Assembly (NCBI GenBank): GCA_964346935.1
Contig: CAYFXP010000190.1
Span: 1 to 44,645, forward strand
Source of the DNA: an uncultured Syntrophobacterales bacterium
GTDB taxonomy: Bacteria; Desulfobacterota; BSN033; WVXP01; G020346125
Length of the DNA stretch: 44,645 nt
Direction: 5' to 3'
Shown: positions 7,641 to 27,867 of the stretch, piece by piece
Layout of the letters: each line of letters opens with the position of its first letter
How positions within the stretch are numbered: the stretch's first letter is position 1
Position numbers and translations under genes: made by a program
The notes under the pieces: model-generated
Told to the model about the DNA's origin: nothing
Seen by the model: the letters and a program-made list of their open reading frames with translations, nothing else
Database searches by the model: none

Positions 7641-8087
7641 TTACGGACCCTTGGCCAGGACGATCTTACCCTGGGCCACCACGGTTTCGTTTACCTTTGC
7701 CTCCACCTTCACCATGGCCAAGGACTCGAAGACGCGAAGGACTTCTGCATGAAGCCGTAGCTGATCACCCGGCGAGACGGCCGATCGAAAGCTCATGTCC
7801 TCGATCTTGGCCAGTATGGGCAACCGAAAGCCCCCTGCCTCGTCGGGGTTCTCCTCACCAGAGGCGAAGGCCAGCCCACCTGTTTGGGCCAAGGCCTCGG
7901 CAATGAGCACACCGGGCATGACCGGAATACCGGGGAAATGGCCCCGAAAGAAGGGCTCATCAATAGTCACATTCTTTATGGCCGTGGCCGCCTTGCCAGG
8001 CTCGAGGTGAACCAGCCGATCGATCATCAAGAAGGGATACCGATGGGGTAGATGCCTCATGATTTCATCGATGTTCATGGCTGGCAT
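7641..8087 (-). CDS. fabZ: 3-hydroxyacyl-ACP dehydratase FabZ
   Basis: [34 protein letters not shown] (catalytic His and Glu contexts). Start taken at ATG 8087 (MPAMNIDEI) after GAGAAAGGA. The 221-aa track ORF adds a non-homologous extension that overlaps the upstream gene. Confidence 0.9.
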
Positions 8088-8095
8088 TCCTTTCT

Positions 8096-8572
8096 CTAAA
8101 AAACGGAAATAATTTGAAGGACCCCGGTGGTTAATCCGAAGACGATGAGTATCCCCAGGACGGATCCGGTCATCAGCAGCAACGTCCCGTGCAGGCGCCG
8201 CTTCCCGATGAGAAAGCAAAAAACCGATCCCGAATGGATGCCGAAGCCCTTGATGGGGAGGGCGGAGATGAGGACTATCCCCAAGTTCCCCAGTGAGGTA
8301 ATCCATCGGATTAGGCGTTTCTCCCGCATACGCTCCTGCATTCGTTCCACCTGTTTCCGAGCCCAGCGAAAGGGAAATTTCTCGGAAAACCGCTCAAGGA
8401 GATACCCGTAAATGGGTATCTGCACGTAATCATAACCCAGCGCCAGGGGAATGTAGTAGTGTAGGGGCAGATGATTGATAATGGCGTATACCATGGACAC
8501 CGTGCGCCCGCAGGCGAAATGCAGGGCGGTAAAGATCAATAGGTGATTAGTAGGGGAAAAGAGGTCTTCCAC
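8096..8572 (-). CDS. Hypothetical polytopic membrane protein
   Basis: About four hydrophobic helices. The GTG start overlaps the stop of the upstream KS-like gene by 1 nt (TAGTG). It faintly resembles small multidrug-export-like (COG2426-type) proteins, from memory only. Confidence 0.6.
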   Translation of the reverse strand: MEDLFSPTNHLLIFTALHFACGRTVSMVYAIINHLPLHYYIPLALGYDYVQIPIYGYLLERFSEKFPFRWARKQVERMQERMREKRLIRWITSLGNLGIVLISALPIKGFGIHSGSVFCFLIGKRRLHGTLLLMTGSVLGILIVFGLTTGVLQIISVF

Positions 8573-9780
8573 TATTTACCCATGAGGATGGAGGCGAAGG
8601 TTCCATCGGGTGAGAGGGCGTTGTGAAGGATGGTCTTAACCTCACTATCGACGGAGCTATTGACCACGTAACTGAGGTCACACCGGGGATCGGGGGTTTT
8701 ATAGTGAATGGTTGGGGGTATGAATCCCTCCTCAAAAATGATGGCATTTGCCGCCATTCTTATCCCACCCGAGGCGATGGACTCCCCAACCATGGACTTG
8801 ATGGAGCTTATGGGAAGGGCGCCATAATCCGATGGGAACGCCCCTTTGATCGCCTTTGCCTCTATCTCGTCCACCTTTTTCGAAGAATTACCCACCCCCG
8901 AAATATAGTCAACCTTCCTCTCCTCGTCCGTGCCTTCTATGGCTAGTCGAATGCTGCGCTCCATATCCCTCCATGGGGAAGCGGCATCGAACCCGCCCAC
9001 GAAGGAATAGCCCAAGATCCGCCCATAGGGCTCGACGCCCCTGGAAAGGGCACTTCCCTCCCTCTCCAAGACGAGGATGGCTGCCCCTTCCCCGAGAACG
9101 ATTCCATTTCGGTTCAGGTCATAAGGGCAGCTCATCTCCCCATCCCCACGATCATATGACAGGAGATTAATGGCGGAAAAGCCCCTGAAGAGGATTTCGC
9201 TCAGCTCATCCACGCCTCCCGTCAATATGGCCTTCGCCCTCCCCTCTGCCAGCAGATCGCAGGCCATGATTATGGCGGCCTCGGCCGTGCAATAGGATTG
9301 GACCACCGTTGAATTTACACCCCTGATCCCGAGCTCTATGGAGACATTCCCGGTGGCCGCGTTGGGAACGGTATTGGGGAAGAGGATGGGATTCAATTCC
9401 AGAAATCCCCCCAGTACTTGTTCCCTATGGAAGGCCTCCGAATTGGCAAGCCCGCAGAAACCGGAACCCAGGATGATCCCAACCTCACAGCTATTGGAGT
9501 CGGTAATGGTCAATTTGGCATCCCCCAAGGCCAACTTCGACGCCGCAATGGCCAGCTGACTCGCCCGGTCCAGTTTCCTGATCTTGGAGACTGGGATGAA
9601 TTCCCGGGCATTGAACCCCTTGACCATACCCCCCTTCTTCGCCTTAAAGAGACCGGTGTCGAATTCGGAGATCTCGGAAATGCCATCCGCGCCGTCCCGC
9701 AGACCCCGGCAGAACTGGGTCTTTCCAATTCCGATGGAGCTTACAACGCCGATGCCCGTTATGACGATTCCCTCATTCAT
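8572..9780 (-). CDS. Beta-ketoacyl synthase-like protein lacking both catalytic His residues (CLF-like partner)
   Basis: Thiolase-fold KS throughout. Cys is retained (VVQSYCTAEAAI), but the HGTGT position reads YISGVGNSS and the KSMxGH position reads SIKSMVGES. Confidence 0.85.
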   Translation of the reverse strand: MNEGIVITGIGVVSSIGIGKTQFCRGLRDGADGISEISEFDTGLFKAKKGGMVKGFNAREFIPVSKIRKLDRASQLAIAASKLALGDAKLTITDSNSCEVGIILGSGFCGLANSEAFHREQVLGGFLELNPILFPNTVPNAATGNVSIELGIRGVNSTVVQSYCTAEAAIIMACDLLAEGRAKAILTGGVDELSEILFRGFSAINLLSYDRGDGEMSCPYDLNRNGIVLGEGAAILVLEREGSALSRGVEPYGRILGYSFVGGFDAASPWRDMERSIRLAIEGTDEERKVDYISGVGNSSKKVDEIEAKAIKGAFPSDYGALPISSIKSMVGESIASGGIRMAANAIIFEEGFIPPTIHYKTPDPRCDLSYVVNSSVDSEVKTILHNALSPDGTFASILMGK

Positions 9781-10987
9781 ACTTTTTCAGCACGATGGTG
9801 GTGCAATTTCCCCCGAAGGCAAAGGAATTGGACAAGACGGTTCCCACCCCTTGCCTTCTCGATCGATGGGGAACGTAGTCCAAGTCGCACGCCTCATCCC
9901 TTTCGCCATAGGTAGCCGTGGGTGGGACAAACCCATGGATTATCGAAAGGACCGAGGCCACAGCTTCAATGGCTCCTGCCGATCCCAGGCAGTGCCCCAC
10001 CATGGACTTGATGGAGCTGACGGGAACGGAATAGGCCCTCTCCCCCAACGCGTCCTTGATGGCCATTGTCTCGACTTTGTCGTTGAGCGGCGTCCCCGTT
10101 CCGTGGGCGTTGATGTAGTCCACCTCACCGCGGGCAATGTTGGCCGCGTTCATGGCCTCCCCCATCGTCCTGGATTGTTCCCTGCCGCTTGCCTCCGGCG
10201 CGGTCATATGGTAGGCCTCTCCAACGGTGGAATAGCCCAGGAATTCCGCGTAGATAGTTGCCCCCCTCGCTCTAGCACGCTTCAATTCCTCCAGAACCAA
10301 AATCGCCGCCCCCTCTCCCAGGGTCATTCCCCTTCTTCTCGCATCAAAGGGCTTGCAGGGAGTCGGATCCACCACTCGGAGGGAATTGAAGCCCCCGAAG
10401 GTTAGTTCGCTCATGGCATCGCTTCCGCCACAGATCATGATCTCCACATGTCCCCTCTTGATAAGGTCTGCGCCGTATCCGATGGATGTGGCGGAGGAAC
10501 TGCAGGCCGTCGTGATAGTGGCCTTCGGTCCACAGAGGCAAAACCGTTGTGATACAGCATCAGTGGAATAACTGGGGAGGAAGGGAAGAATCAGCGAGGG
10601 ACGAGGTTTTCCCCTCCCCTTGAGAAGGAGGTCACGATGGTACTGCTCAGCCGAAAGCATGCCGCCTGCGCCCGCACCGAGACATACTCCGATTTCCCGG
10701 TGGGGCTTCCCGTTCATATCGATTCCGGCATCTTTGACGGCCTCCATCGAGGCGATGAGGGCAAACTGGTCTGTCCGGGAGAGCCTTCTCAATTCGGTAG
10801 GGCCGAAATAATCCAGGGGGTCGTAATCCCTGATCTGGGCCGCAATCTTGGAGGGGTACTTGGAGGCGTCGAACAGGGTCACCTCGCCGATGCCCACCCT
10901 GCCCTCCTCGAGGGAACGGTGGAACTGGGAGATGTTCTTCCCGATGGCGGTAATCGCCCCCAACCCGGTGATCACAACCCTTTTCAT
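9773..10987 (-). CDS. Beta-ketoacyl-ACP synthase II-type condensing enzyme (intact Cys-His-His)
   Basis: TTACSSSATSIG (Cys), YINAHGTGTPLND (His), SIKSMVGHCLGSAG (His). Start taken at ATG 10987 (MKRVVITGLG), 13 nt after the fabG stop and preceded by GAGGGGA. The track start at 11017 is also possible. Confidence 0.9.
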   Translation of the reverse strand: MKRVVITGLGAITAIGKNISQFHRSLEEGRVGIGEVTLFDASKYPSKIAAQIRDYDPLDYFGPTELRRLSRTDQFALIASMEAVKDAGIDMNGKPHREIGVCLGAGAGGMLSAEQYHRDLLLKGRGKPRPSLILPFLPSYSTDAVSQRFCLCGPKATITTACSSSATSIGYGADLIKRGHVEIMICGGSDAMSELTFGGFNSLRVVDPTPCKPFDARRRGMTLGEGAAILVLEELKRARARGATIYAEFLGYSTVGEAYHMTAPEASGREQSRTMGEAMNAANIARGEVDYINAHGTGTPLNDKVETMAIKDALGERAYSVPVSSIKSMVGHCLGSAGAIEAVASVLSIIHGFVPPTATYGERDEACDLDYVPHRSRRQGVGTVLSNSFAFGGNCTTIVLKKYE

Positions 10988-11000
10988 TCCCCTCGGCTGA

Positions 11001-11741
11001 TTAGACAATTCCCCCATCCACGACTACCGTCTGGCCGGTGATGTAGTCGGATCCCTCCGAGGCCAGAAACAGCACGGCATGGGCGACCTCCTCGGGTCGA
11101 CCGATGCGCCCCAAGGCGGTTTGCCTGATGATGGCCTCGACCTTCTCCTTTGGGACCCTCGCCAACCAGTCCGTTTCGATAACCCCCGGCGCCACCGCAT
11201 TGACCTGGATGTTGAATTGACCCAACTCTCTGGCCAGGGATTTGGTGAAGCTTATCAAGCCTCCTTTAGAAGCGGCATAGTTGACCTGACCAGCCGTGCC
11301 CAAGATGCCGCTGACCGATGCGATATTGATGATCTTGCCCTTCCGCTGGGGAATCATCTTTCGCAGGGCGGCGCGACAGCAATAGAAGGTGCTGGTCAGA
11401 TTCGCCTTCAGGACGCGCTCCCAATCCTCATCGGACATCAACATGAGAAGGTTATCCCTCATCATGCCCACGTTGTTGACGAGGATGTCGATCCTGCCAT
11501 AGCGGCCCGCGACATCCTCCATCATAGCGCTGACTTGGTGAAAATCAGTCACATCGGCTTGGTATGGATCGAGCGTGCCCCCGAGGGATTCGGCCTCCTC
11601 GGATAGCTCCTGGGCCGCCCGTTCGTCGGAGGCATAATTGGCGATAACGAAAGCTCCCATCTCGCAGAAAGCTAAACCAATGGCCTTCCCTATTCCCTTC
11701 GAGCCACCGGTTACTATGGCTATTCGGCCATCGAACTCCAT
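11001..11741 (-). CDS. fabG: 3-oxoacyl-ACP reductase (SDR family)
   Basis: [11 protein letters not shown] cofactor motif, the NNVG segment and the YAASKGG catalytic motif. Length 246 aa. Confidence 0.9.
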
Positions 11742-11745: not shown

Positions 11746-13146
11746 TTACTCCCCGGCGAGAGGCCTCACCCTTGGCCTCTTCATTCTCGCGACCAAGTTC
11801 CAAAGAGGGCCCCTGATGTGAAACCGGCGGATTTGGTCCATCAATTTCTGGGAAATGTTAATCTCTAATCCCGGCACAATCCACCCCTTCCTCTCCAAGG
11901 CCTTTTGGGAGACCCAAGACAGGATTTCATCCCCCAATTGGGGGGAGACGTAAAAATGGGGATACATGAGGTTGGTGTCGCGACCGATGATCCCCTCCGA
12001 CAGGGATATCCTCTCCAGCTCCGTTCCAGGGTATATCCGAATTCCCACCATGACGATGACTGCCGTTGGCTTGACTTGGTCCATCAAGGAGGCGGTCTCC
12101 CCCAAGGTCTTCTCGTCCTCCCCGGGCCCACCTAAGAGGAGGTAGTGGGCAAAGGGAACCTCGACCATCCTGCATATCTCAGAGGCCCGAGAAATATCCC
12201 CCAGGGAGAAGGATTTCCCAAGCCTCCTCAACATGGCGGGAGACCCTGAATCGGTGCCGAACTCGACTCCCGTACAGCCCGCCTCTTTCATGGTTTCGAT
12301 CAGCTCCTCATCGACATACCCCGGATTGACAAAGGCGCTCCATTTCAACCCGATGCCCTGATCCGCCATGGATCGGCAGAGCCCAAGGGCATAATCCCGT
12401 GGAAAGTTAAAGATATCATCCACGAAGTAGACGTAATCGACATCGTGGAGTTCCTCCAGAGCCCGGAGCTCCTGGACGACCTCCTCCGGGGGCCTCGTGC
12501 GCACGGAGGACCCCTCCAGCAGCGGGTAGGTGCAGTAGATGCACCCGAAGGGGCATCCCCTTTTGGTCTGAATGTTCCCCATCCCTCCATGGCGCAGATA
12601 TCGTGCGTTGTCCAAGAGGTCCCGATACGGAAACCCAATGGATTCGACTCCATCGATGGCCGGAACCGATTCGGGAAGATCCTCCCGTACCATCAGTCCG
12701 GGGATCCCCTTCACCGAGATTCGCTTTTCCAAGCGCCGAACAAGGGAGAGCATGGGATTCTCACCCTCTCCCACAATCCCAAAATCGACATTCAGCACCT
12801 CCAAGAGCTCCCTTGGGGCCAACGAGAACCCAGAGCCCCCAATGATCACCTTGGCCCCCGAATATTTCCTGCAGAGCGCGATCACCTCCTCCGCTTCTGG
12901 AACATATGAGAGGGCAGTTGGATAGGTCAAATTGTCCAGGTTTCTCAACGAAAGTCCGATCAGGTCAGGCCTCCACCGCGATATCTGATCTTTTAGCTCC
13001 TCCTCCACGTCGTCACTGAAACAGAGGTCCACGATTCTCAACTGATGCCCTTCCTCCTTGAGCCCGGAAGCGATATAGGCCAATCCCAAGGGGAAGACCG
13101 GAAAGGGCATTCTCTCCCTGTTTACCGATAGCAAGAGAATCTTCAT
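11746..13146 (-). CDS. B12-binding-domain radical SAM protein (lipid-cluster type)
   Basis: N-terminal MKILLLSVN...[12 protein letters not shown]...DLIGLSLRN...VIIGGSGFS, and radical SAM motif [18 protein letters not shown] overlap with the next gene at 13143-13146. Confidence 0.9.
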
Positions 13147-14468
13147 GATGGATCCGCGTCAAACCGGCGATACCTAAGCCTGTTGACGATCTCCATTTGA
13201 GCCTTCCTCAGGGCGAAATTGCTCATCAAGAAGTAGAGGAAGTGGTTCCTGTTGCCCCCCAGGAGCCTTCCAAAGATAGAGCGAGGGGAACAGCAGTACT
13301 TCTGAGCCCATAGGTATCCCTGCTGGAGTTCTTCCGGGCTCATCAGCTTTGGCTTGAATACCACATGGCTCATATCGTAGTGAGGCCAATGGTTATCGAA
13401 GATTCGCCCCTCCTCCTCGAGCCTCCTCCTCAGAGGCGTCCCGGGAAAGGGCGTGAGCACGAAGAAGTTAGGGAGCTCAATATGGGTCTCATGAACGAAA
13501 TCGACGGTCCTCCTAAACACGTCCTTGTCATCGTGATCGAATCCAAAAATAAAGGAACCCTGAATCCCTATCCCGTGGTCCTGGATTTGTTTGATGAGGT
13601 CAGCCAGCTCTCGGGTGTCCACAAAGGTCTTTCTCGCCCCATCCAAGTTCTCCTGATTGAGGGATTCGAACCCGATAAAGAGGGAGATGCACCCGCTTTC
13701 CCTGGCCAGGGCGAGCAGCTCCGGATTGCGGGCGATTTTGAGAGTACAAAATCCCATCCACTTGGGCTCATATTTCTTGAGGATGCGGAAGAGTTCGGCC
13801 GCGAATTTCGGCTGGGCAATGACGTTATCGTCGGTCAGCATGAGATATTCTCCCCCTCTCCGGATGAGGGAGGAGAGTTCGGAATCGATGTGGGAGATAG
13901 ACCTGGTCCGATATCGCATCCCGTTGATCATGGGGACGGAGCAAAACTCGCACCGATTGGGGCAACCCCTCGTCGTCTCAATAGCATTGAAGAAGCGGCT
14001 ATACCTGGAGCCCAGCAATTCCCTCCTCGGGAGGGGCATTTTTCTCAAATCGAAATAGTTTTCGGTCCGATAAAATGGCTTTAGGCAGCCTGCTTCATAG
14101 TCGGAGATGAGCTCCTGGAAGATTCCCTCCGCCTCGCCAATCAGGACGGCATCTGCATGGGCTTTTGCCTCTTGAGGCAAAAAACTCGCATGTACCCCCC
14201 CGATGACCACCGTTTTCCCCCTCGTGCGAAATTCATCCGCTAGGAAGTGAGTCCGATCCGCAACACACGTCAAAGAGGTGAGTCCCACCAAATCCACATC
14301 CGCTTTCAGATCCACCTTCTCGATGGCTTCGTTTACAATGGTAATATCCCAATCCTTGGGAAAGAGGGAGGCCAATACCGTGAGACCGAGCATGGGGAAG
14401 GGGCGGCACGTATCCGTGGACACCCTCTTTCCCCTTTCCCTCGGAAAGATGAGCAGAGCTCGCTTCAC
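13143..14468 (-). CDS. B12-binding-domain radical SAM protein (paralogue of 558..1904)
   Basis: TRGCPNRCEFCSVP. GTG start preceded by AAGGAGGT. GTGA overlap with the upstream gene. The C-terminal YLWAQKYCCSPRS is shared with the 558..1904 protein (FLWTKKYCCAPRS). Confidence 0.9.
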   Translation of the reverse strand: MKRALLIFPRERGKRVSTDTCRPFPMLGLTVLASLFPKDWDITIVNEAIEKVDLKADVDLVGLTSLTCVADRTHFLADEFRTRGKTVVIGGVHASFLPQEAKAHADAVLIGEAEGIFQELISDYEAGCLKPFYRTENYFDLRKMPLPRRELLGSRYSRFFNAIETTRGCPNRCEFCSVPMINGMRYRTRSISHIDSELSSLIRRGGEYLMLTDDNVIAQPKFAAELFRILKKYEPKWMGFCTLKIARNPELLALARESGCISLFIGFESLNQENLDGARKTFVDTRELADLIKQIQDHGIGIQGSFIFGFDHDDKDVFRRTVDFVHETHIELPNFFVLTPFPGTPLRRRLEEEGRIFDNHWPHYDMSHVVFKPKLMSPEELQQGYLWAQKYCCSPRSIFGRLLGGNRNHFLYFLMSNFALRKAQMEIVNRLRYRRFDADPS

Positions 14469-15868
14469 GTTACCTCCTTCAGAAATTCATCATACTCCTG
14501 AAAGTTCGGCTGTCTCCACTGCCTCCTGGTAGCGTTCTCCCATACGTACCTCATGATGAGCCGATACGCCATCCGCTTAAAGGGATTGCGGCTCAGCAGG
14601 GGCCCTAGCAATATCCGGGGCTGAGTATAGTACTTCTTGAGGTACGTCTTCTGGAGAGATTCCACTTCTTCTGCTGAAAGGCAATGAGTCGGCATAACAG
14701 GATGCATGAAATCATATTTACCGAGGTCAAACTCAACGATTCTCCCCGCCTTCATGGCCTCCTCATAGTAAGGAGTTCCCGGTAGTGGAGTTGTCATGGT
14801 CAATATGAGAAAATCGCTCTGCTTCTTCACGAACTGGAAGATCTCTCGTAATGTCTCCTTGCTATCGAGCCAATCCACGAACATCACGTTGGCCATAACC
14901 ATGATCCCGTTTTCCCTCAGGATATTGATGGCCTCTTGGGCCATATCCCGGTCTTGCCTCTTGTCATATCGGTCCAGCACGGAGGAGGTCACGCTCTCGA
15001 CCCCCAACATCACCTCGTAGAGCCCCAGCCGCTTGAACTCGGACATGAGATCCCGATCCCTGATGATATCCCTCACCCGCGACTGAAACCAGAAGTGAAC
15101 CCCCAGGCCCGATTTCCCCAGTTCCTCCAAGAATTCCTCCACCCGTTTCCGACTCCAATTGAAGCTATTCTCGTTGAAGACGAAGAGCGTCTTTCCGTAC
15201 CGTCCGTTCAGATAAACCATTTCCTCAACAACCCTCCTGGCACTCCTCGCCCGCCAATACCCTTGCCAGAAGGCCGTCTCGGAACAGTATGCACAACAAT
15301 CACCACAGCCGCGGCTCGTCGAAATCCCAAAAGCCTCCCTTCCCATCCCATGCCAGTAGTAGGCATCGTTCTCCACGTCGATGAGGTGGTATGCGGGCAG
15401 GGGAAGGTCATCCAAATCCTGGATGAGGGGCCTCATTCGGTTCATCACCACCTCCCCGTCATTCGAAAAGGCCAAGCCCCTGATCCCTTTCACCCCCTCC
15501 CAATCACCCTCGGCGACCTGGGAGACGAATTCAGCCATTGATCCCTCGCCCTCCCCCAACAGGACGTAGTCGAGCTCCGGCACATCTTTAAGGATGGACC
15601 TGGCTAAAAGGGTGAAATGGCTCCCGCCCGCCACGATCACGGATCGTCGCGAGAGCCGTTTGGCCAGGGCAATGGTCTGAAAGGCCTCGGGCGAAAGGCA
15701 GGTCGCACTCGCCGTGACCCCGATGATATCGGGCTGGGCCCCCGAAATCCTCCTCGCCAAATCGGACCAGGGCCTATCGAAGGTTGTGCAGTCGAGGATT
15801 TGGCAGGAAAATCCCGCCTTTTCCAGGTATGCCCCCAGGCTCAAAAGGCCGAAGGAGGGGGTCCACAT
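14465..15868 (-). CDS. B12-binding-domain radical SAM protein (N-terminus probably extends to ~15931)
   Basis: SRGCGDCCAYCSE. Coordinates use the first ATG. The in-frame upstream codons (KGKPTIFLVDPPHRLFPGLR) still align with the N-terminus of the 18512..19879 paralogue, yet contain no ATG, GTG or TTG. Confidence 0.85.
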   Translation of the reverse strand: MWTPSFGLLSLGAYLEKAGFSCQILDCTTFDRPWSDLARRISGAQPDIIGVTASATCLSPEAFQTIALAKRLSRRSVIVAGGSHFTLLARSILKDVPELDYVLLGEGEGSMAEFVSQVAEGDWEGVKGIRGLAFSNDGEVVMNRMRPLIQDLDDLPLPAYHLIDVENDAYYWHGMGREAFGISTSRGCGDCCAYCSETAFWQGYWRARSARRVVEEMVYLNGRYGKTLFVFNENSFNWSRKRVEEFLEELGKSGLGVHFWFQSRVRDIIRDRDLMSEFKRLGLYEVMLGVESVTSSVLDRYDKRQDRDMAQEAINILRENGIMVMANVMFVDWLDSKETLREIFQFVKKQSDFLILTMTTPLPGTPYYEEAMKAGRIVEFDLGKYDFMHPVMPTHCLSAEEVESLQKTYLKKYYTQPRILLGPLLSRNPFKRMAYRLIMRYVWENATRRQWRQPNFQEYDEFLKEVT

Positions 15869-15927
15869 CCTCAGCCCCGGAAAGAGCCGATGCGGGGGAT
15901 CGACCAGAAATATCGTCGGCTTGCCCT

Positions 15928-19879: not shown

Positions 19880-19933
19880 GCGGCCCCCCGTTTGTCGACC
19901 CACCATCGGCCTATGGGAAGCCCCCAAGCAGAA

Positions 19934-20926: not shown

Positions 20927-21930
20927 GTCTCCCCCTCAGACTGCAACGCTCTCGTCCTTCTCTGCGTACAGATGTCTACAAAGGCCTCCAATCTGGTGGC
21001 CAGGCCCTGGACGGTGGCATGCTCGTCCAGCGATAAGGTCAGGAAGGGAATGGTACTTTCTCCATGGGCCTTAAAAGCCCTCTTGAGATACTCCTGCAGG
21101 AGGGCATCGATACCGCATTTGAAGGAGCTTAAGAAGACCACGCCATCTATGTCGTTTCGCCTAAGGAAAATAAACGCAGCCCCAACAATTTCCCTCCCCG
21201 ATGACCAGTAGATCTCCTTGGATAGATTTGAGACCCTCCTATCGACCTCACCTCCGTCCAAGGAGTCGGCGATGGCGATCTGGCAGCCCAATTTCCTGAC
21301 CATCCCGAGGACATCTTTACTTACATCCGCATCATAGATATTGTAGGGATGACCGATGAGGGCGATATTGAGATCTCCAGACCAGGAGGTCGTCTCTGGT
21401 GTTGGTATCTCCAACGTGAAGATATCCCTAATGGGCAACCCGTTCACCCTCTTCGCCAAATCACCCTCGAATTCCCGCTGGGCAGAAAGAGCCGCGCGGG
21501 ACGCAGCACGGATCTGCCCTGGTTTCAACCCCAACCGCTCGCCTATGGCCTTAGAGAAGCCGCTCCATGGATCACTCCCCAACCGATAATCGAGGGAATC
21601 ATCAATGACTTCAGCTTGGTTCCCGGTGGCTAATTTAACGATATCAGGAACCCCCCTGAACTTTGGGCACATGATGTATTTGCGATGAATGCTGATTAGC
21701 CGCGGCACGAAGAGGAAGTCCACCTCCTTCGCAAGGTCAAGACAATGGGCGACCATCAACTTCATGGGGAAACAGCTATCCTCGAAATAACCGATGGCTT
21801 GTCTGCCGAGCAATCCCCTTCCCATCGGATCAGAGGTAACTACTTCACATCCCATTTCCCGGAAAAAGGCGGACCAAAGGGGAAAGAAGCGATAGTACAT
21901 GAGTCCCTTAGGGATGCCTACTCGTCTCAA
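20917..21930 (-). CDS. HgdA/B-like, DUF2229-type 'CoA enzyme activase-associated' protein (middle-domain type)
   Basis: VGIPKGLMYYRFFPLWSAFFREMGCEV and FLSSFKCGIDALL...LSLDEHATVQGLATRLEAFVD align by eye with residues ~680-990 of the 1407-aa protein. TTG start. Confidence 0.8.
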   Translation of the reverse strand: MRRVGIPKGLMYYRFFPLWSAFFREMGCEVVTSDPMGRGLLGRQAIGYFEDSCFPMKLMVAHCLDLAKEVDFLFVPRLISIHRKYIMCPKFRGVPDIVKLATGNQAEVIDDSLDYRLGSDPWSGFSKAIGERLGLKPGQIRAASRAALSAQREFEGDLAKRVNGLPIRDIFTLEIPTPETTSWSGDLNIALIGHPYNIYDADVSKDVLGMVRKLGCQIAIADSLDGGEVDRRVSNLSKEIYWSSGREIVGAAFIFLRRNDIDGVVFLSSFKCGIDALLQEYLKRAFKAHGESTIPFLTLSLDEHATVQGLATRLEAFVDICTQRRTRALQSEGETCI

Positions 21931-21967
21931 TGAAATCCTTGCCTCCCCTGATCCACCATCAAGGCAT

Positions 21968-22212
21968 CATCTGCGGCGTTGCCTTCGATCGCTCCTCCTT
22001 GCGGCGTATTGCTCCATACGCCTCAGTCGTCGCTCCTCGGCGCCTTGCATCTAATACCTTGCTGGTGATCAGGAATATTTCTATAACCTGCTGATTTCAG
22101 TTTTGACGGCTTCGTAAAAAGTCCACCTGCTGCGTTACGCCTCATCTTTCGTCATTGCGGCGTACTGGTAAGTACGCCTCATTCCTCAAGATTCGCAAGC
22201 CTTGCATTTGGC
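21968..22212. repeat. Two direct copies (~85 nt, offset 156 nt) of a hairpin-containing REP-like element
   Basis: Copy 1 is 21968-22052 and copy 2 is 22124-22209 (CTGC[G/T]GCGTT...TTGCGGCGTA...TACGCCTCA...GCCTTGCAT). Hairpins are GGCGTAT/ATACGCC (22003-22022) and GGCGTACT/AGTACGCC (22159-22178). Confidence 0.6.
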
Positions 22213-23379
22213 GCTTTTTACTTTGCCGTCGGATTTTTGACATTTTACGAGTTCATCAGTTTTAATACCTAAATTAGACGGTGGATTTTGGCGTCTCCTC
22301 CACCTGAGCATATCCACGAAGGCCTCAAGCAACGTGATAATCCGCCCCTCGTTCTCCTGCTCGTCCAAGATGAGGGTAAGGACGGGAAGGCCCAAATCCC
22401 TGCTCACCCGATCGAGGATCCCCGATGCAGTGGTTTCCGGCATACACGCGAAGGGCATCAAGTGGACGACCCCGTCGTAACCGTCCTTTGCCCTGAGGAT
22501 GGTTTCCCCTATGGAGACGTTGCATTCGGCCCCCACATCGTAGCCTAAATATTCAAGGGAAGCCTGATGGTAGCTCAGCCGCTCCCGCCGATTCTTCCTC
22601 CCCACGCCCAGGCTTCTCATAATGTGCGAGGAAAACCACGAGGTTCGGCTTACCTCGACCCCCAATTCCCCTAGTTTTCGCTCGACTCCCTTGTTGATTT
22701 GGGGATCCATCACCGTATAGAGCTCACCCACGATGGCTACCTTCAGGGGCTGTCGACCACGGTCTTGATCAACGGAATCGAGGATTTTCTCCCCATCGAT
22801 GACGGCCCTTTCGATGGCCTTGCCCGTTTTCGCCCTATCGAGACCTGCGAGGACTTTCTGCAAAGCCTTCTCCGTTCGCCCTATAATGACTTCTCTGGCC
22901 CGCACCTTCAAGGCCAGCTTCTCCAGCTTTTCGCAGGCCATCATCTTTTTCCAGCCAACCCAGAGGGCATAGGGGAACGTCGCGATGTTCTTGAAGCTTA
23001 ACTCCTTCTTCAGCTCCATGGTCTCTTCCCTATTCTTGAGCAGGGCCGGCCAGTCCAGCGTGGGGGGAATGGTCAACCATCTATAGTGAAGGCCTAAGTC
23101 CTCAAGGATGACCTTTTGAACCAGGTCATAGAGGCCGAGCCTACAAGGAGGACCGCTTCCCACCATTATGATGGTGTCCGCGCCCAGCTCCAGGGCCTCG
23201 ATGAAATTTCCCAGGATAATCTTAAAAGGGAGGCAAATACATTCGTTGGAATTCTTAACGCCTAGGGTGAGGGTCTTCTTGCTCGTTTTGGGTGGGACGA
23301 CATAATCGATACCCGCGGTTTCCGCGATCGCCTTGCAGAATATGTGCATCGTTCCCAGGTGCGGAAAGGTGACCTTCAT
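22186..23379 (-). CDS. HgdA/B-like, DUF2229-type protein (C-terminal-domain type)
   Basis: KVTFPHLGTMHIFCKAI...NECICLPFKIILG and HLMPFACMPETTASGIL...LILDEQENEGRIITLLEAFVD align by eye with residues ~1000-1390 of the 1407-aa protein. ATGA overlap with the upstream radical SAM gene. Confidence 0.8.
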   Translation of the reverse strand: MKVTFPHLGTMHIFCKAIAETAGIDYVVPPKTSKKTLTLGVKNSNECICLPFKIILGNFIEALELGADTIIMVGSGPPCRLGLYDLVQKVILEDLGLHYRWLTIPPTLDWPALLKNREETMELKKELSFKNIATFPYALWVGWKKMMACEKLEKLALKVRAREVIIGRTEKALQKVLAGLDRAKTGKAIERAVIDGEKILDSVDQDRGRQPLKVAIVGELYTVMDPQINKGVERKLGELGVEVSRTSWFSSHIMRSLGVGRKNRRERLSYHQASLEYLGYDVGAECNVSIGETILRAKDGYDGVVHLMPFACMPETTASGILDRVSRDLGLPVLTLILDEQENEGRIITLLEAFVDMLRWRRRQNPPSNLGIKTDELVKCQKSDGKVKSAKCKACES

Positions 23380-24767
23380 GCATGTTTACCCCCTGCTCCT
23401 ACCTCCACCTCCCCCGCATCCCCTTCCTGCCACGCGGCATCGGCTATTGCCCCGTACTCCTCGGCAAACCGATCGATATCGGGCGCCAAATCCGCAAAGA
23501 GGGCCCGCGCACCGGGATGGGTAAAGTATCCGGCATAATTGAGGGCAAGATCCCTCCCCTGACGAGGATGATCGATTAACATACAAGGCCTCATGTGATT
23601 CTCGGAAAAGGGCTGCCGAGCCCGAATCTCCCTGAAAAGGGGAGATGTAAGCACCTCAAGAAGGGATTTCCCCCGAATATTATCCGATGCAAAATGACAG
23701 AAAACACAGGGCTCCACATCGCCCCGGGCGTTGATGTGCAAGTACTTCCTCCCCCCAGCAATACACCCCTGGGTGAGATGACCATCGTTCCAAAAATCAA
23801 CAAACAGCATGGGCTTGGTTGCCCGAAAATACCGCAACCGCTCCCGCATCAAATTCCTCTGCCCAGGGGTAGCCATCATCCTGAGATCCGGATTCCTCCC
23901 AATGGGAACGTAATAGAAATTCCACATCAGAATACACCCCTTCTCCACCAAAAAATCGATGAACTCGTCGCTCGTCAGAATATCGGTGTTAAAACACGTC
24001 TGAGTCGTGGAAACCGCGAAAAAAAGACCCGCCTCCCTCAAAAGATCCATCACCCGCACATTCCACTCGAAACGACCCTCGCCCCTCCTCAAATCGGTAT
24101 GATCCTGAAGCCCCTCCACGCTGATGGCCGGCATGACATTGCCCAACCCGATAAACCGATCCACCATCTTCTCGTCAATCAGGGTCGCATTGGTATAGAT
24201 CTGAAAACTTACATCCCCGTGCCTCTCGAAAAGCTCGAATATGTCACCCCTCAGGAAGGGCTCCCCCCCCGTAAAGAGAATGAGGTGAATCCCCATCTCC
24301 TTGCCCTCGGCGATCACCCTGTCGATGATCTCCAACTCCATCTCCTCCCCATACTCATAGTCCCCCGAATAGCACCCATCGCAGCTGAGGTTGCACCGCA
24401 TGGTCGGACTGATGAGAAGGGCATCGGGCGGATAGACCCCCGTGCTCGCCTCGAATTCCTTCCGCCTATTGGTGCCCACCAAGAGCTGATTGATGATGAA
24501 GTTGGTGATGATCTTCCTGCGGTGATGCGAATTTGCCTCCCTCAATATTCGCTTGGCTAACTGAAGCCCCGGGTGCTTCCGCCTGAAGAGCTCCCTGATC
24601 CAACGGATCTTCCTCCGATATGAATCCTTTCGCGGGATTCTCTCGGCCAGGTGTGTCAGACGGATCAGCTGCTCATCGGATGCACTGGCCAGAAGGGAGA
24701 GGGCACTGGTGGTGAACTTCTCGAGGGAGTAGTGCTTCATCCTCGTGTAGACGCTTACCTTTGACAT
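23376..24767 (-). CDS. Radical SAM protein with a C-terminal SPASM/twitch-like Cys region
   Basis: PTMRCNLSCDGCYS (CxxxCxxC), LFTGGEPFL, and C-terminal GCIAGGRKYLHINARGDVEPCVFCHF...RPCML. Start taken at ATG 24767 after AAAGGTGGAG (the track starts at GTG 24776). Confidence 0.85.
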   Translation of the reverse strand: MSKVSVYTRMKHYSLEKFTTSALSLLASASDEQLIRLTHLAERIPRKDSYRRKIRWIRELFRRKHPGLQLAKRILREANSHHRRKIITNFIINQLLVGTNRRKEFEASTGVYPPDALLISPTMRCNLSCDGCYSGDYEYGEEMELEIIDRVIAEGKEMGIHLILFTGGEPFLRGDIFELFERHGDVSFQIYTNATLIDEKMVDRFIGLGNVMPAISVEGLQDHTDLRRGEGRFEWNVRVMDLLREAGLFFAVSTTQTCFNTDILTSDEFIDFLVEKGCILMWNFYYVPIGRNPDLRMMATPGQRNLMRERLRYFRATKPMLFVDFWNDGHLTQGCIAGGRKYLHINARGDVEPCVFCHFASDNIRGKSLLEVLTSPLFREIRARQPFSENHMRPCMLIDHPRQGRDLALNYAGYFTHPGARALFADLAPDIDRFAEEYGAIADAAWQEGDAGEVEVGAGGKHA

Positions 24768-24791
24768 TCGCTCCACCTTTTCCGCCGAGAT

Positions 24792-25466
24792 TTACCGCCA
24801 TAACAGACTCCGTAGGTAGAGCATGCAGATCTTAAAGGTGTCGATGACTGGTCTGAAATGACTGGTGCTGGTACCAGAAATGGCATGGCCTTTAGTTGAC
24901 ATAGTTACCACACGATACCCTTTTTTGCAAGCCTTGATGAGCAACTCCATCTCCGTTTCGTAAGTTGAGGTGGTGAGCTCGACGTTCCGTAACACCTCTG
25001 TACGGATGAGACGATAACCGGATTGACTGTCGCTTATCGGGGTATGGGTTAATCGTGAAACGGCCTTTGCCCCCAATCGATTCCAGAACCGCCTCAGCCA
25101 GGGCATCTGGCCGAACTGGGCGGCCCTGGATCCAATGATGATATCCGGGCTCTCGTTCCGGTCAAGCTCTACAAAACGTGGGATCTCAGCGGGATGATGT
25201 TGGCTATCAGCATCAAGAGTGATGACCGCTTCATACCCGTGCTCCATCACATGGGCAAAGCCCGTCCTAAGGGCACGGCCCTTTCCTTTGTTGGTGGGGT
25301 GTCGCAATAGGGTGACCCCCATCTCCCTGCCGATTCGAGCCGTTGAATCCGTCGAGCCATCGTCTACAACGATGATATCGAGACGGCTTTGTTTTACCCC
25401 TTCAATTACCCCCTTGAGGGTCTTTTCTGCATTGTAGGCCGGTATGAGAACGCACAATTCGCTCAA
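24792..25466 (-). CDS. Family 2 glycosyltransferase (polyprenyl-phosphate/DPM1-like size class)
   Basis: VLIPAYNAEKTL...IIVVDDGSTDST...TLDADSQH (DxD context). 224 aa with no TM tail. TTG start overlapping the upstream stop (TTGA). Confidence 0.85.
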   Translation of the reverse strand: MSELCVLIPAYNAEKTLKGVIEGVKQSRLDIIVVDDGSTDSTARIGREMGVTLLRHPTNKGKGRALRTGFAHVMEHGYEAVITLDADSQHHPAEIPRFVELDRNESPDIIIGSRAAQFGQMPWLRRFWNRLGAKAVSRLTHTPISDSQSGYRLIRTEVLRNVELTTSTYETEMELLIKACKKGYRVVTMSTKGHAISGTSTSHFRPVIDTFKICMLYLRSLLWR

Positions 25467-26305
25467 GGTGAATCCCCATAAATCTGCCTGATGGCACCGA
25501 AGGAAAACTCCCCCAGAAGCCTTTCCATCCTTTCCTCGGTGCTCTTGATCTTTCCGTGACAGACGAAGCGCTTTACCAGAGGCAATGAAATTTTCGGCGG
25601 ATCGGGATCGAACTCGGAGGGGTGGAGAAAAATCACCGCAGGTATCTCGTGACCATTCAACTCCTCAATGGCCCCCCTGATCATTCCGTATGGAAAAACC
25701 CTTAACCCCCATCCTCCCCCCACGGGTACGTTCCCCGCCCAGGTACTCTTAACCAGGGGAGGAAATTCCTCAATCCTCCCATGGTCCGTCGAGATGCTAT
25801 AGGGTTTCCTGGGGGCGTTGGGGATTCCGATGATCCTTAGAGGCGCGATGCTGGAGTCGTATCGGAATCCATTTGAGGCCAAGATCGGCAAGGCCCAAAG
25901 GGAATTCCTCGGCCCCTTTCTGATGGACCATTCAGGAGCCCGGTACCCAAAAACCTGGCCGCCGATTACCTCTTGAATGACACTCCTTGACCGGGTAAGA
26001 TCCCTCTCGAACTTATCCGGAGTCATCTTATAGACCTGTATGTGGCCAAACCCATGGGAGGCGATCTCATGCCCTTCATCCGCGATCATCTTGATTACAT
26101 CCGGGAGCCGTTGGGCGACGTATCCCAGGACGAAAAAGGTACCGAAGACCCGATTCGTGGAGAGGATCTCAAGAATTCTGGTGACGTTTTTCTCCACCCT
26201 ACTCTCGCAGCGATCCCACTGGGATGGAGGGACGATGTTTTCGATATCACAGATATGAAACCAATCCTCCACGTCGACCGTTATGGCATTGAGAACATCC
26301 TTCAT
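25463..26305 (-). CDS. Polysaccharide deacetylase-family protein (PEP-CTERM-locus/DUF3473-like subtype)
   Basis: N-terminal NAITVDVEDWFH and HEIASHGFGH metal-site motifs. The subtype name is from memory. Confidence 0.8.
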   Translation of the reverse strand: MKDVLNAITVDVEDWFHICDIENIVPPSQWDRCESRVEKNVTRILEILSTNRVFGTFFVLGYVAQRLPDVIKMIADEGHEIASHGFGHIQVYKMTPDKFERDLTRSRSVIQEVIGGQVFGYRAPEWSIRKGPRNSLWALPILASNGFRYDSSIAPLRIIGIPNAPRKPYSISTDHGRIEEFPPLVKSTWAGNVPVGGGWGLRVFPYGMIRGAIEELNGHEIPAVIFLHPSEFDPDPPKISLPLVKRFVCHGKIKSTEERMERLLGEFSFGAIRQIYGDSP

Positions 26306-27567
26306 CGAGGCGCTAAGAATCTCCTCATATCCCTGTCGTAGAGAAGGGTCAAAAGGGTTAAAACCCTGCCAAGCACGGGACCAGGATCCTGCCGGGAGAT
26401 TATATCATAGCAGGTATTCTGGTTGAAGAAATCGAAAAAAGGGGGGGAGAGGTGAAATCGGTTTGGGCTTCGGAAGAAGTGGAAGAGATCCCCGGGAAGC
26501 AGCCAGCGGCAACGTAGACCAACCTCATAGTTAAGGACCGGCTCGAAACGTTCCCCTTTCGCCATTCGGTATATGAGATAAGGGAAATCCACCCCGGAGG
26601 AAATAGCTAATTGCAGGGATCCCCAGAACCTGGGATTCACCTCCATCAGCTTCGGGGTATTATCCCTTGGATCCATTTTGAACTCCACCATGGCCACACC
26701 GAACCAATCCAGGGCCCTGAGTAGCGATAGCCCCAGCTCCAAGAGCTCGGGGTGTAAAACCGACTCCCGTAGAGTACTAGGGCCACCACTGATGGGATAT
26801 TCCCTCAATCTACGATGGACGAAGGCCGCCTTCACCTTTGAATCCTCATCGAAAAGGGCCGATATTCCGAAGGAATCCCCCTCCCGGGGAATACGCTCCT
26901 GAACCAGGGGAAGGGGATACTTTTGGTGAGCTGCCAGGTAGGCTGCTAAAAGGTCTTGCCCTTCGTTGACGTAACGAACTCCAAAGGCCCCGGACCCTAT
27001 TCGTGGCTTAACGACGGCCGGAAACCTAAATCGGCTGGCCTTAACCTCTTCGGGAGTTCTGAAGAAGAAGGTCCTTGGACAGGGAATTCCCTTTTTCATG
27101 GCGAATTTCAGCAGCTTTTCCTTATCCCGGACGAACTGGATCTTTTCATAGGGTGCAACGGGCAGGAACGCGAGGCCATCAAAGAGGTCCCGATGCCGTG
27201 CCAGCAGCAGCAGGGTGACCTCCTCCATTGGAAAGATTGCACAGTAACCCCTCGCAAGCTCCCGGCGCAAATAAGTAAGAAACCCATCGGGATTCCTGAT
27301 GGGAGAGGGATATATGACCCGTCGTGAGCAGTATCTGGAGAAAAAGGACGTTGCGATAGCCGTGCTTTCGCCAACGGTCACCCGGATCCCTTTCCTCCCG
27401 AGCGAACGAACGACCGCTAACGTCTTTCTCCAATGTCCATCGGTAACGAAAACCCGCATCTCCCTCGTCAGGGAGGGAATTCCAGCTTCCCCCATTATCT
27501 CGACGAAAAGGGAAAGGAGACCCTGGAGTGAAAAAAATCTAAGCTCATGGGTCTCCCGTGGCGGCAT
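26302..27567 (-). CDS. ATP-grasp domain protein (carboxylate-amine ligase-like)
   Basis: MRVFVTDGHWRKTLAVVRSLGRKG pre-ATP-grasp Rossmann segment, FPAVVKPRIGSGAFG, and EFKMD...PKLMEVNPRFWGS. The start is ambiguous: ATG 27567 (4 nt after the upstream stop) or ATG 27459 (after GAGGGAG). Confidence 0.8.
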   Translation of the reverse strand: MPPRETHELRFFSLQGLLSLFVEIMGEAGIPSLTREMRVFVTDGHWRKTLAVVRSLGRKGIRVTVGESTAIATSFFSRYCSRRVIYPSPIRNPDGFLTYLRRELARGYCAIFPMEEVTLLLLARHRDLFDGLAFLPVAPYEKIQFVRDKEKLLKFAMKKGIPCPRTFFFRTPEEVKASRFRFPAVVKPRIGSGAFGVRYVNEGQDLLAAYLAAHQKYPLPLVQERIPREGDSFGISALFDEDSKVKAAFVHRRLREYPISGGPSTLRESVLHPELLELGLSLLRALDWFGVAMVEFKMDPRDNTPKLMEVNPRFWGSLQLAISSGVDFPYLIYRMAKGERFEPVLNYEVGLRCRWLLPGDLFHFFRSPNRFHLSPPFFDFFNQNTCYDIISRQDPGPVLGRVLTLLTLLYDRDMRRFLAPR

Positions 27568-27570
27568 GGA

Positions 27571-27867
27571 TCAGTAGGTGATGGAGAACCGGTCGAACTC
27601 CCCGAGATACTCCCCCCAATCGGTATCGACCCTTTGGACGTAAGCACCTGGGGGCCCCTTACGACACCATTCGATCATCTCCTTAACCCTATCTTGGTCC
27701 CCTTCGAAGACCGCCTCCACCGCTCCATCCCACCTATTCTTTACCCACCCGAAGACGCCGAGCTGCTTGGCCATCTCCTGCGTACTATAGCGAAAGAAAA
27801 CGCCATGTACTCTCCCCCTTACAATGACCCGGGCTCTAACCTTTTGCGTTTCCTTCCCCTTTTCCAT
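27571..27867 (-). CDS. Acylphosphatase
   Basis: 98 aa with VRARVIVRGRVHGVFFRYSTQEMAKQLGVFGWVKNRWDGAVEAVFEG, the classic V.G.VQGV.FR / GWV.N signature. Confidence 0.85.
   Translation of the reverse strand: MEKGKETQKVRARVIVRGRVHGVFFRYSTQEMAKQLGVFGWVKNRWDGAVEAVFEGDQDRVKEMIEWCRKGPPGAYVQRVDTDWGEYLGEFDRFSITY

Follow-up and report, generated by a model that had tools for sequence, protein, structure and literature searches.

A putative ladderane-type fatty acid synthase/radical SAM gene cluster with a split Ger/PlsA-related module in an uncultured Syntrophobacterales bacterium

Fatty-acyl (nonisoprenoid) lipids have hardly been studied as targets of radical S-adenosylmethionine (SAM) enzymes; ladderanes and jawsamycin are the only ones named in a 2026 review as subject to proposed modification of this kind. 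The candidate ladderane genes of the anammox bacterium Kuenenia combine fatty acid synthase (FAS) and radical SAM functions. kuste2802 to kuste2805 encode AcpS, a B12-binding radical SAM enzyme (B12-rSAM), FabF, and a noncanonical FabB with Phe163, Asn298, and Glu333, and Cluster I (KustE3603 to KustE3608) encodes an acyl carrier protein (ACP), FabZ, FabF2, FabFmut, a phytoene-desaturase-like protein, and a B12-rSAM. FabF2 and FabFmut form a heterodimer, resembling a ketosynthase (KS) with its chain-length factor (CLF), that decarboxylates malonyl-ACP. No experiment links these ladderane genes to their product, and members outside anammox bacteria have no known product: similar clusters occur in D. 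psychrophila, Geobacter, and Pelobacter, and D. psychrophila contains no ladderanes (Rattray et al. 2009); antiSMASH “ladderane” clusters without assigned function are reported in Desulfobacterota. A second relevant system is the anaerobic glycerol ester reductase Ger, by which an sn-1 ester becomes an alkyl ether. Ger is made up of two BcrAD domains plus pieces of DUF2229 and HGD-D and is equivalent to PlsA and PlsR fused into one; as separate proteins, these two form a natural two-protein plasmalogen synthase. Here we describe a train of minus-strand genes that combines features of both systems in a 44,645-nucleotide stretch of DNA (the window; contig CAYFXP010000190.1) from an uncultured Syntrophobacterales bacterium.

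By its gene content, the locus is a member of the ladderane-type FAS/radical SAM cluster class, which is known yet uncharacterized, because one of its B12-rSAMs (rSAM4) passes the TIGR04072 profile and an active KS lies beside a dead KS. Its other class features are a dedicated ACP and a FabZ; a phytoene-desaturase-like domain, as in anammox Cluster I, was not found in the 41 window open reading frames (ORFs) scanned. TIGR04072 is a family that we take to have been built around the B12-rSAM of the Kuenenia FAS/radical SAM clusters proposed for ladderane synthesis. A preliminary description of this DNA had concluded that neither the aryl polyene nor the ladderane class fits; the TIGR04072 marker, the KS/dead-KS pair, and the earlier deltaproteobacterial and Desulfobacterota reports make that conclusion too strong. 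ORFs were taken from a six-frame table of the window, and identities were taken from Pfam and NCBIfam profile scans, which agree with the preliminary description on every gene from the acylphosphatase through FabZ. The genes run without interruption on the minus strand from 27571 to 27867 down to 7641 to 8306, as originally described, and extend to an ApbE gene at 6558 to 7616.

The FAS genes comprise a dedicated ACP (17303 to 17575), a FabD-like acyltransferase (16331 to 17287), a hotdog thioesterase (TE) of the 4HBT/YbgC type (15928 to 16356), a FabG-type ketoreductase (11001 to 11741), an active FabF-like KS (9773 to 11017), its partner (8572 to 9780), and a FabZ dehydratase (7641 to 8087), all on the minus strand. 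The ACP is of the PRK09184 type (NF006617, 78.7 bits versus a cut-off of 70) and scores below the cut-off for AcpP (TIGR00517, 45 bits versus 70); its best match among solved structures is 9ls6_A, and the serine of its DSI motif is present. The FabD-like protein (TIGR00128, 150 bits versus 261; EHSMG motif) and the KS both fall under their equivalog cut-offs. The non-AcpP ACP, these subequivalog proteins, and the dead KS partner bear out the earlier proposal of a private type II FAS-like set. The TE matches PF13279 and comes close to TIGR00051 (61.5 bits versus 68.7); the ketoreductase narrowly misses TIGR01830 (294.9 bits versus 297.75) and passes NF009466 (256 bits versus 222). FabZ (161.9 bits versus 155.15) exceeds the cut-off of the housekeeping equivalog TIGR01750. 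Neither FabH nor an enoyl reductase was found in the train by Pfam or NCBIfam.

The active KS retains the Cys-His-His triad, with motifs ACSSS, YINAHGTGT, and KSMVGHCLG. Alignment of its partner with Bacillus subtilis FabF (4ls6) places Tyr, Val, and Glu at the positions of Cys and the two His, respectively, which identifies a predicted catalytically dead, CLF-like protein. The third-best solved relative of the partner, 9s5h_C, has Val, Asn, and Glu at these positions, as published for anammox amxFabFmut; the other chain, 9s5h_B, is matched by the active KS. From the Val/Asn/Glu pattern alone, 9s5h is taken here as the anammox heterodimer; the preprint does not name 9s5h.

Five radical SAM enzymes are encoded in the train, as the preliminary description had stated: one with a SPASM/twitch-type C-terminal domain (23376 to 24776; PF04055 and PF13186; CNLSCDGC motif) and four B12-rSAMs, namely rSAM1 (18512 to 19927; BchE/HpnJ/HpnR-like), rSAM2 (14465 to 15868; BchE-like in Pfam/NCBIfam), rSAM3 (13143 to 14468), and rSAM4 (11746 to 13146). 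A fifth B12-rSAM on the plus strand (537 to 1904) is a paralogue of rSAM3 (43% identity). The CxxxCxxC motif is intact in all five train enzymes and in the sixth radical SAM protein of the window. The preliminary description had proposed a search with the lipid biosynthesis B12-rSAM family; rSAM4 passes the profile of that name, TIGR04072 (393.3 bits versus a cut-off of 360), and the four other B12-rSAMs score 78 to 111 bits. Thermodesulfobacteriota relatives 61% identical to rSAM4 are named “lipid biosynthesis B12-binding/radical SAM protein” by NCBI, and its solved relatives are TsrM and AprD4. The TIGR04072 number and name were not found in any paper in the searchable literature. Apart from rSAM3 and the protein at 537 to 1904, the five B12-rSAMs are 25 to 31% identical among themselves, yet each is about 60% identical to its own orthologues, which argues for distinct functions. 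Scores for other named families are low: 174.9 bits versus 577.6 for HpnJ (rSAM1), and 46.5 versus 225 for HpnH and 111 versus 500 for NirJ2 (both the SPASM enzyme). Membership of the SPASM enzyme among tail-coupling enzymes of the Tes/GDGT-MAS type was considered and rejected, and such a function is kept as a speculation only: the match to 7tol (19.4 bits; E = 0.003) covers only about 75 residues of the radical SAM core.

The ATPase module lies between the SPASM enzyme and rSAM1 and consists of three minus-strand genes. These encode D2229a (22186 to 23379), a subunit with DUF2229 and weak HGD-D matches; D2229b (20917 to 21930; PF09989, 148 bits), a DUF2229 subunit; and an HgdC/BcrAD-type ATPase or activase, termed BcrAD (19934 to 20926; PF01869, 166 bits; TIGR00241, 192.9 bits versus a cut-off of 125.4). 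Divergent from the cluster, on the plus strand, is a gene for a 1,407-residue fusion protein (28345 to 32568) with two BcrAD_BadFG domains (PF01869), DUF2229 (PF09989), and a C-terminal PlsR-like region, an architecture that matches published Ger; its best solved relatives are HadI and HgdC. The module is colinear with this fusion. BcrAD aligns with fusion residues 323 to 633 at 48% identity (and with residues 4 to 281 at 46%), and its C-terminal Cys-rich motif is common to the fusion linker. D2229b aligns with residues 672 to 985 (29%) and corresponds to the “D” region in the middle of Ger/PlsA, and D2229a aligns with residues 1000 to 1391 (24%) and corresponds to the PlsR-like part at the C terminus of Ger; in both proteins, three Cys motifs line up with the fusion. 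Cys49, Cys79, and Cys312 of D2229a do not vary in an alignment with the fusion among its sequences, and Cys126 and Cys164 of the ATPase presumably match the cluster ligands of HgdC.

HGD-D (PF06050) matches remain below the gathering score (22.7 and 24.0 bits versus 28.4) and cover the C-terminal 60 residues only. An AF2 model of D2229a (pLDDT 72.7; pTM 0.75) is predicted to have the fold of HgdA/B, double-cubane cluster proteins (DCCP), or benzoyl-CoA reductase (BCR). All 16 Foldseek hits to the PDB at an E value of ≤0.001 are DCCP, HadBC, BzdNO, or MbdON (probability 1.0; TM score of about 0.5). In the searchable literature, DUF2229 function is discussed for Ger/PlsA only. From these similarities, the module is best described as a relative of Ger/PlsAR, split three ways, in the HgdAB/BCR superfamily, and this homology points to a reductase that probably transforms a substrate and does not simply supply electrons. 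Of the preliminary description of an ATP-driven electron-transfer module, the HgdC-type ATPase and the two HgdA/B-fold proteins stand, by profiles and fold search, and general electron supply becomes less likely. The full-length Ger/PlsA-type fusion also implies that the host probably makes ether lipids, regardless of cluster function. A promoter-like site precedes the fusion gene (28238 to 28267), although the promoter scan as a whole is at shuffle level.

Enzymes that may provide the linkage and headgroup are encoded mainly at the 5′ end of the train, again on the minus strand. The first gene encodes an acylphosphatase (27571 to 27867; PF00708, 94 bits), a variable member, and the second encodes an ATP-grasp ligase (26302 to 27567; ATPgrasp_Ter and ATP-grasp_3), the first cluster gene in most relatives. 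The sole solved relative of the ligase with an E value of <1e-10, 2pn1, was deposited as “Carbamoylphosphate synthase large subunit” and is uninformative. A polysaccharide-deacetylase-family protein of the NodB/ArnD type with DUF3473 follows (25463 to 26305; PF01522 and PF11959; TIGR03006, 272.7 bits versus a cut-off of 276.2), also a variable member. The family 2 glycosyltransferase (GT2; 24792 to 25466; PF00535) is of the polyprenyl-phosphate-sugar synthase type. Its best NCBIfam matches are AglJ, PpgS, dolichyl-P hexose transferase, and ArnC, with scores far below the cut-offs (47 bits versus 529 for ArnC and 103 versus 370 for PpgS), and its solved relatives are DPMS (5mlz), ArnC, and GtrB. 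The LpxL/PatA-family acyltransferase (Lip_A_acyltrans; 17599 to 18555; PF03279, 116 bits) has as its best NCBIfam match the phosphatidylinositol mannoside (PIM) acyltransferase PRK07920 (132 bits versus 209) and by sequence is nearest to the PIM mannose-acylating PatA family. The DAD motif of GT2 and the HX4E motif of the acyltransferase (HLGNWE) are present. The GT2 type, the NodB/ArnD-type deacetylase, and the PatA-like acyltransferase suggest a lipid-phosphate-linked (amino)sugar that gets acylated; the chain would then be transferred, as had been proposed earlier, to a glycosylated or aminated acceptor.

Conservation was assessed by scanning one genome per species with an rSAM1 alignment, which gave 54 loci onto which the window proteins were then mapped. 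Carriers are mostly labeled Thermodesulfobacteriota or deltaproteobacteria (Syntrophaceae and Syntrophorhabdus), followed by Nitrospirota and a few other labels. In the closest syntenic relative (L001), gene order is the same from the SPASM enzyme to ApbE, with 74 to 91% protein identity. Among the 17 loci with long flanks and rSAM1 identity of ≥55%, BcrAD and the acyltransferase are present in 16, the SPASM enzyme in 15, rSAM3 and rSAM4 in 13, and the ATP-grasp ligase in 12; GT2, D2229a, D2229b, ACP, the FabD-like protein, TE, and rSAM2 are each found in 14. The window order is kept from GT2 to rSAM2 in 14 of these 17 Thermodesulfobacteriota loci and on through rSAM4 in 13, at 43 to 75% identity. 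D2229a is the most conserved cluster protein (70 to 73% identity across Thermodesulfobacteriota). The small membrane protein (Sm_multidrug_ex, PF06695; 8096 to 8572 on the minus strand) adjoins the KS partner in L001, L002, L003, and L059, as it does here. In the 12 distant loci long enough to show the region 5′ of the ATP-grasp gene, tatB-tatC-radC is found there in place of an acylphosphatase; these housekeeping neighbors place the 5′ cluster boundary at ATP-grasp in distant relatives. The acylphosphatase gene lies beside ATP-grasp only in the window and L060, and its divergent pairing with a Ger-like fusion recurs in L012. The homologue of the B12-rSAM at 537 to 1904, which itself sits 4.7 kb past ApbE, lies beside FabG in L002, L003, L050, and L059 (66 to 68% identity), which suggests that 537 to 1904 is a detached member of the cluster.

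The cluster is modular. In rearranged loci, GT2-SPASM-D2229a and BcrAD-rSAM1-acyltransferase pieces stay whole. The 1.09-Mb deltaproteobacterial chromosome CP070817.1, a metagenome-assembled genome (MAG), has acylphosphatase, ATP-grasp, GT2, SPASM, D2229a, and a short D2229b together and BcrAD-rSAM1-acyltransferase elsewhere (L028 and L060), with no dedicated FAS or rSAM2 to rSAM4 genes within 10 kb of either piece. Such a linkage/headgroup module without tail genes nearby may accept ordinary acyl chains as substrates. On other contigs, the set is reduced to acyl-CoA dehydrogenase-dead KS-membrane protein-rSAM3-rSAM4-FabG, and a homologue of 537 to 1904 is close by. The Nitrospirota version is a tight train of D2229b-D2229a-BcrAD-LolA-KS-dead KS-rSAM-DUF2062-rSAM-rSAM4; D2229 and BcrAD were not seen in one Nitrospirota locus (L036), where the train goes on through FabD-FabG-ACP-FabZ-TE-MMPL. 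Across the two phyla, the constant elements are the ATPase module, the KS/dead-KS pair, and at least three B12-rSAMs. The preliminary description would have been undermined had the FAS, radical SAM, HgdC-like, and headgroup blocks failed to co-occur elsewhere; they co-occur in the long-flank loci and, in part, in Nitrospirota.

On balance, and with moderate confidence, the train is probably a conserved operon of about 21 genes for a specialized radical-SAM-tailored lipid, made by private fatty acid synthesis, B12-rSAM tailoring, esterification, and reduction of the ester carbonyl. From the enzymes present we infer the product class, most likely an unusual envelope lipid, as well as the order and chemistry of the steps. 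The KS/dead-KS heterodimer would build an ACP-bound chain with the FabD-like protein, ACP, FabG, and FabZ, the dead partner setting its length. As the train lacks an enoyl reductase, the chain would be reduced by housekeeping enzymes or left unsaturated. Four nonredundant B12-rSAMs (five with 537 to 1904) would functionalize unactivated carbons by methylation and/or ring formation. The PatA/LpxL-like acyltransferase would then esterify the chain onto a hydroxyl of a lipid-linked sugar. The polyprenyl-phosphate-type GT2 would make this sugar, and the deacetylase and the ATP-grasp ligase would trim or extend it. Finally, BcrAD, D2229b, and D2229a may act as an ATP-driven iron-sulfur enzyme that delivers a low-potential electron into a (thio)ester carbonyl, most likely converting ester to ether as in Ger/PlsAR; this last step is a reasoned hypothesis, not a claim of membership. 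A more specific proposal, which we make tentatively, is a new class of bacterial ether lipid with chains from a private KS/CLF-type FAS, multisite methylation or cyclization by B12-rSAMs, and an ether bond made by a three-subunit branch of the Ger/PlsA family.

Several observations weigh against this pathway. An exhaustive HMMER search recovered 273 representative clusters of D2229a relatives at an E value of ≤1e-30, mostly standalone proteins of about 360 residues or D-D fusions of about 730 residues. These are 30 to 44% identical to D2229a, versus 24% for the Ger-like fusion, and at least one lies outside any lipid context. D2229a thus belongs to a separate subfamily whose reaction could differ from ester-to-ether reduction, and its structurally characterized relatives all act on CoA thioesters or small molecules. 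The SPASM enzyme and rSAM1 to rSAM3 reach no curated family cut-off, so methylation is indistinguishable from cyclization. Two genes at the 5′ end are poorly conserved (deacetylase in 3 of the 17 long-flank loci and acylphosphatase in none). Internal operon boundaries cannot be inferred, as a sigma-70 promoter scan of the window gave 12 sites (12.4 expected from shuffles) and a terminator scan gave 28 (19.1 ± 5.1 in shuffles), rated as shuffle level. All 54 loci are from MAGs of uncultured organisms, and the scan revealed no cultured organism with known lipids and the full cluster.

Instead of reducing an ester, the module could run ketyl-radical chemistry on an ACP- or CoA-bound chain, eliminating a 2-hydroxyl or reducing a (poly)enoyl thioester in place of the enoyl reductase missing from the train. 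HadBC, BzdNO, and MbdON, among the characterized fold relatives, act on thioesters, the subfamily of D2229a is large and separate from Ger, and in the Nitrospirota loci examined the module lies directly 5′ of KS/dead KS and an acyltransferase is absent. We nevertheless consider thioester chemistry doubtful, given that the sole DUF2229 function in the searchable literature is ester reduction by Ger/PlsA, the whole module is colinear with the Ger-type fusion, full-length HGD-D matches are below threshold, and the ATPase of split clusters travels with the ester-forming acyltransferase. The preliminary description had seen an ATP-driven electron-transfer module; as a dedicated low-potential electron source, it would reductively activate the cobalamin and [4Fe-4S] centers of neighboring radical SAM enzymes. 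Its position between the SPASM enzyme and rSAM1 and its co-occurrence with B12-rSAMs in both phyla are consistent with that role. It is unlikely, however, for a module with two full catalytic-type HgdA/B-fold subunits, each with three conserved Cys; one of the two subunits, D2229a, is the most conserved protein of the cluster. Such subunits bind and transform substrate in every characterized relative, and module relatives exist with no radical SAM gene nearby.

Alternatives for the cluster as a whole are less probable. Aryl polyene clusters combine KS/CLF, ketoreductase, dehydratase, ACP, TE, a lysophospholipid acyltransferase-type protein, and GT2. All of these parts are shared here, although they are generic, and a polyene chain, formed with no enoyl reductase and then exported to the outer membrane, would also fit the LolA-like and MMPL export genes of Nitrospirota relatives and the ApeP-like and ApeI-like Pfam matches of the L001 FabZ homologue. 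An aryl-polyene-type or related polyene lipid is improbable, though, as the cluster has one ACP rather than two, no methyltransferase of the aryl polyene type, and five radical SAM genes and an ATPase module without counterpart in aryl polyene clusters; moreover, as the preliminary description had noted, it lacks aryl-starter activation by an adenylating enzyme or CoA ligase (no AMP-binding or chorismate-lyase-type domain in the window). Synthesis of ladderanes or a direct precursor outside anammox bacteria is suggested by the TIGR04072-type B12-rSAM, KS/dead-KS pair, dedicated ACP, and FabZ common to anammox candidate clusters. It is very improbable, given a D. psychrophila with a syntenic cluster and no ladderanes, the missing phytoene-desaturase-like gene, and anammox genes whose heterologous expression yielded no ladderanes. 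In agreement with the preliminary description, the window offers no sign of anammox: a gene for a class III cytochrome c (5914 to 6288, minus strand) and nearest relatives that are mostly labeled Thermodesulfobacteriota or deltaproteobacteria (two of the closest records are labeled Pseudomonadota) argue against such a host. Finally, the variable or peripheral acylphosphatase, deacetylase, ApbE, and possibly FabZ could be taken to mean that unrelated operons lie head to tail by chance. Synteny contradicts this highly unlikely view: the order from GT2 through rSAM2 and rSAM4 recurs across the long-flank loci, the core persists across phyla, and 13 of the 20 junctions from acylphosphatase to FabZ are overlaps or gaps of ≤6 nucleotides (nt).

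The gene junctions reported in the preliminary description are all present in the ORF table, both the 4-nt start/stop overlaps (26302 to 26305, 25463 to 25466, 23376 to 23379, 14465 to 14468, and 13143 to 13146) and the others (20917 to 20926, 18512 to 18555, 16331 to 16356, 9773 to 9780, and 8572); a FabG/KS overlap (11001 to 11017) had been missed. The remaining gaps had been given as ≤25 nt except for 21931 to 22185. The latter does hold a hairpin repeat, but a second exception exists at 15869 to 15927 (59 nt). The overlap at 18512 to 18555 is probably an artifact of calling the longest ORF. Homologues of rSAM1 have about 455 residues and match residues 17 to 471 of the window ORF, which places the rSAM1 start about 16 codons downstream of the ORF start, and an acyltransferase homologue has 302 residues versus 318 in the window. 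In the FabZ ORF (7641 to 8306), the first 73 or so codons overlap the membrane protein gene in another frame and look nongenic. They are probably spurious, with the real start a Met near 8087, because the match to the FabZ profile starts only at residue 77 and the homologue in L001 is 159 residues long.

In the 255-nt gap between D2229a and D2229b, a 64-nt repeat occurs twice (70% identity between the copies; no such match in 100 shuffles); it is found nowhere else in the window. Each copy has a hairpin of the form GAGGCGTA..TACGCCGCA with an 8-bp stem (22000 to 22024 and 22156 to 22180). The repeat is missing from L001, where the two D2229 genes overlap and D2229a has 366 residues, which suggests a local insertion that added about 31 codons to the D2229a ORF. 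Scans of the whole window with Rfam at gathering thresholds and for tRNAs gave no match, and the gap thus holds no known structured RNA. A sigma-54 consensus search gave one off-target match (1.7 expected). G+C content is 0.53 to 0.58 along the cluster and similar in the flanks.

At the 3′ end, the train is one gene longer than first described. The ApbE flavin transferase gene (PF02424; minus strand) is the last gene and a doubtful member; the FabZ-ApbE pair is kept in L001, where an OmpA gene parts the pair from the cluster. Just 3′ of ApbE, at 6363 to 6346, TCCCCTTGACAAAGGGGG with a T-run after it makes up the strongest terminator-like hairpin in this region. The top-scoring promoter-like site (11 of 12 matches), 5′ of the class III cytochrome c gene, overlaps this hairpin. 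Farther on, a plus-strand pair encodes DUF2062 (TIGR03546) and AsmA/DUF748-like (TIGR03545) proteins (3480 to 5837), which may export the lipid to the outer membrane. A DUF2062 gene also lies between radical SAM genes in the Nitrospirota version (L036, 9570 to 10004; L038, 9609 to 10022). Directly 5′ of the cluster in L036 (2037 to 5057, minus strand) is a gene for a 1,006-residue protein that contains an HNH endonuclease domain and matches RRXRR weakly. On the other side of the window cluster, a 361-residue Fe-S protein with weak QueG/reductive dehalogenase similarity (33368 to 34453, plus strand) is followed by a LUD-domain protein; both are seemingly unrelated to the cluster.

The preliminary description could name no characterized pathway with this combination, and no syntenic cluster tied to a known product was found in the searchable literature. 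Papers there on mid-chain methylation by B12-rSAMs in sulfate reducers, on branched glycerol dialkyl glycerol tetraethers, and on ether lipids make no link to the cluster. New elements are the architecture of about 20 genes, the split between tail and linkage/headgroup functions, conservation in two phyla, and an ATPase module that is a split Ger/PlsA relative beside a full-length Ger-type gene; none was found in the searchable literature. The locus places the KS/dead-KS/B12-rSAM core in a larger, strongly conserved pathway of nonanammox anaerobes, with tail and linkage/headgroup modules that can occur apart and are both tied to a split branch of the sole known anaerobic ether-bond-forming enzyme family. 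The label “ladderane-like biosynthetic gene cluster” now yields predictions, namely ether-bound methylated or cyclized chains and dependence on ATP, cobalamin, and anoxia. If correct, the pathway could be an anaerobic source of orphan branched or cyclized ether-lipid biomarkers. The cluster is widespread among uncultured Thermodesulfobacteriota of peat, soil, and sediment, with the core also in Nitrospirota, and these carriers are candidate producers of unassigned sedimentary lipids. It could also provide a second system for learning the role of the core common to anammox clusters.

Among known systems, ArnC/ArnD, PpgS, and HpnI/HpnK/HpnJ pair a polyprenyl-phosphate-type GT2 with a subsequent de-N-acylase, a logic that the window may share and that provides leads only; HpnJ is the second-best family of rSAM1. 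Unlike those systems, the window has no ArnT-type GT-C or squalene-hopene cyclase, and the deacetylase is missing in most relatives. HgdAB/HgdC, HadBC/HadI, class I benzoyl-CoA reductases, and double-cubane proteins share with the module an ASKHA-type ATPase and two paralogous subunits of the predicted fold, but PF06050 is weak in the window, TM scores are modest, and no CoA-ester context is evident. With the anammox ladderane candidates, the cluster shares the TIGR04072 B12-rSAM, the active KS beside a dead KS, the dedicated ACP, FabZ, and FabG. Its dead KS has Glu at the second His, as do Kuste2805 (Phe, Asn, Glu) and Kuste3606 (Val, Asn, Glu), and, like Kuste2805, an aromatic residue in place of the Cys; a polysaccharide-deacetylase-like gene is also found in the Kuenenia cluster. 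B. subtilis FabF gives slightly higher scores with the KS and its partner than the 9s5h chains do, and so this likeness stops short of specific orthology. In contrast to the anammox candidates, the window lacks the phytoene-desaturase-like gene and a SAM methyltransferase, has four extra radical SAM genes, and adds the split Ger/PlsA-type module, the PatA/LpxL-like acyltransferase, GT2, and ATP-grasp in a host that is not an anammox bacterium. Ger and PlsA/PlsR share with the module the BcrAD_BadFG ATPase, DUF2229, the PlsR-like HgdA/B-fold region, the Cys motifs, and a lipid context in an anaerobe. The catalytic parts are 24 to 29% identical to those of the window's own Ger-type fusion, and D2229a falls in a subfamily with many members outside lipid clusters. 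Whereas Ger is one polypeptide and PlsAR is two, the module of this cluster is divided among three proteins and has a single ATPase domain.

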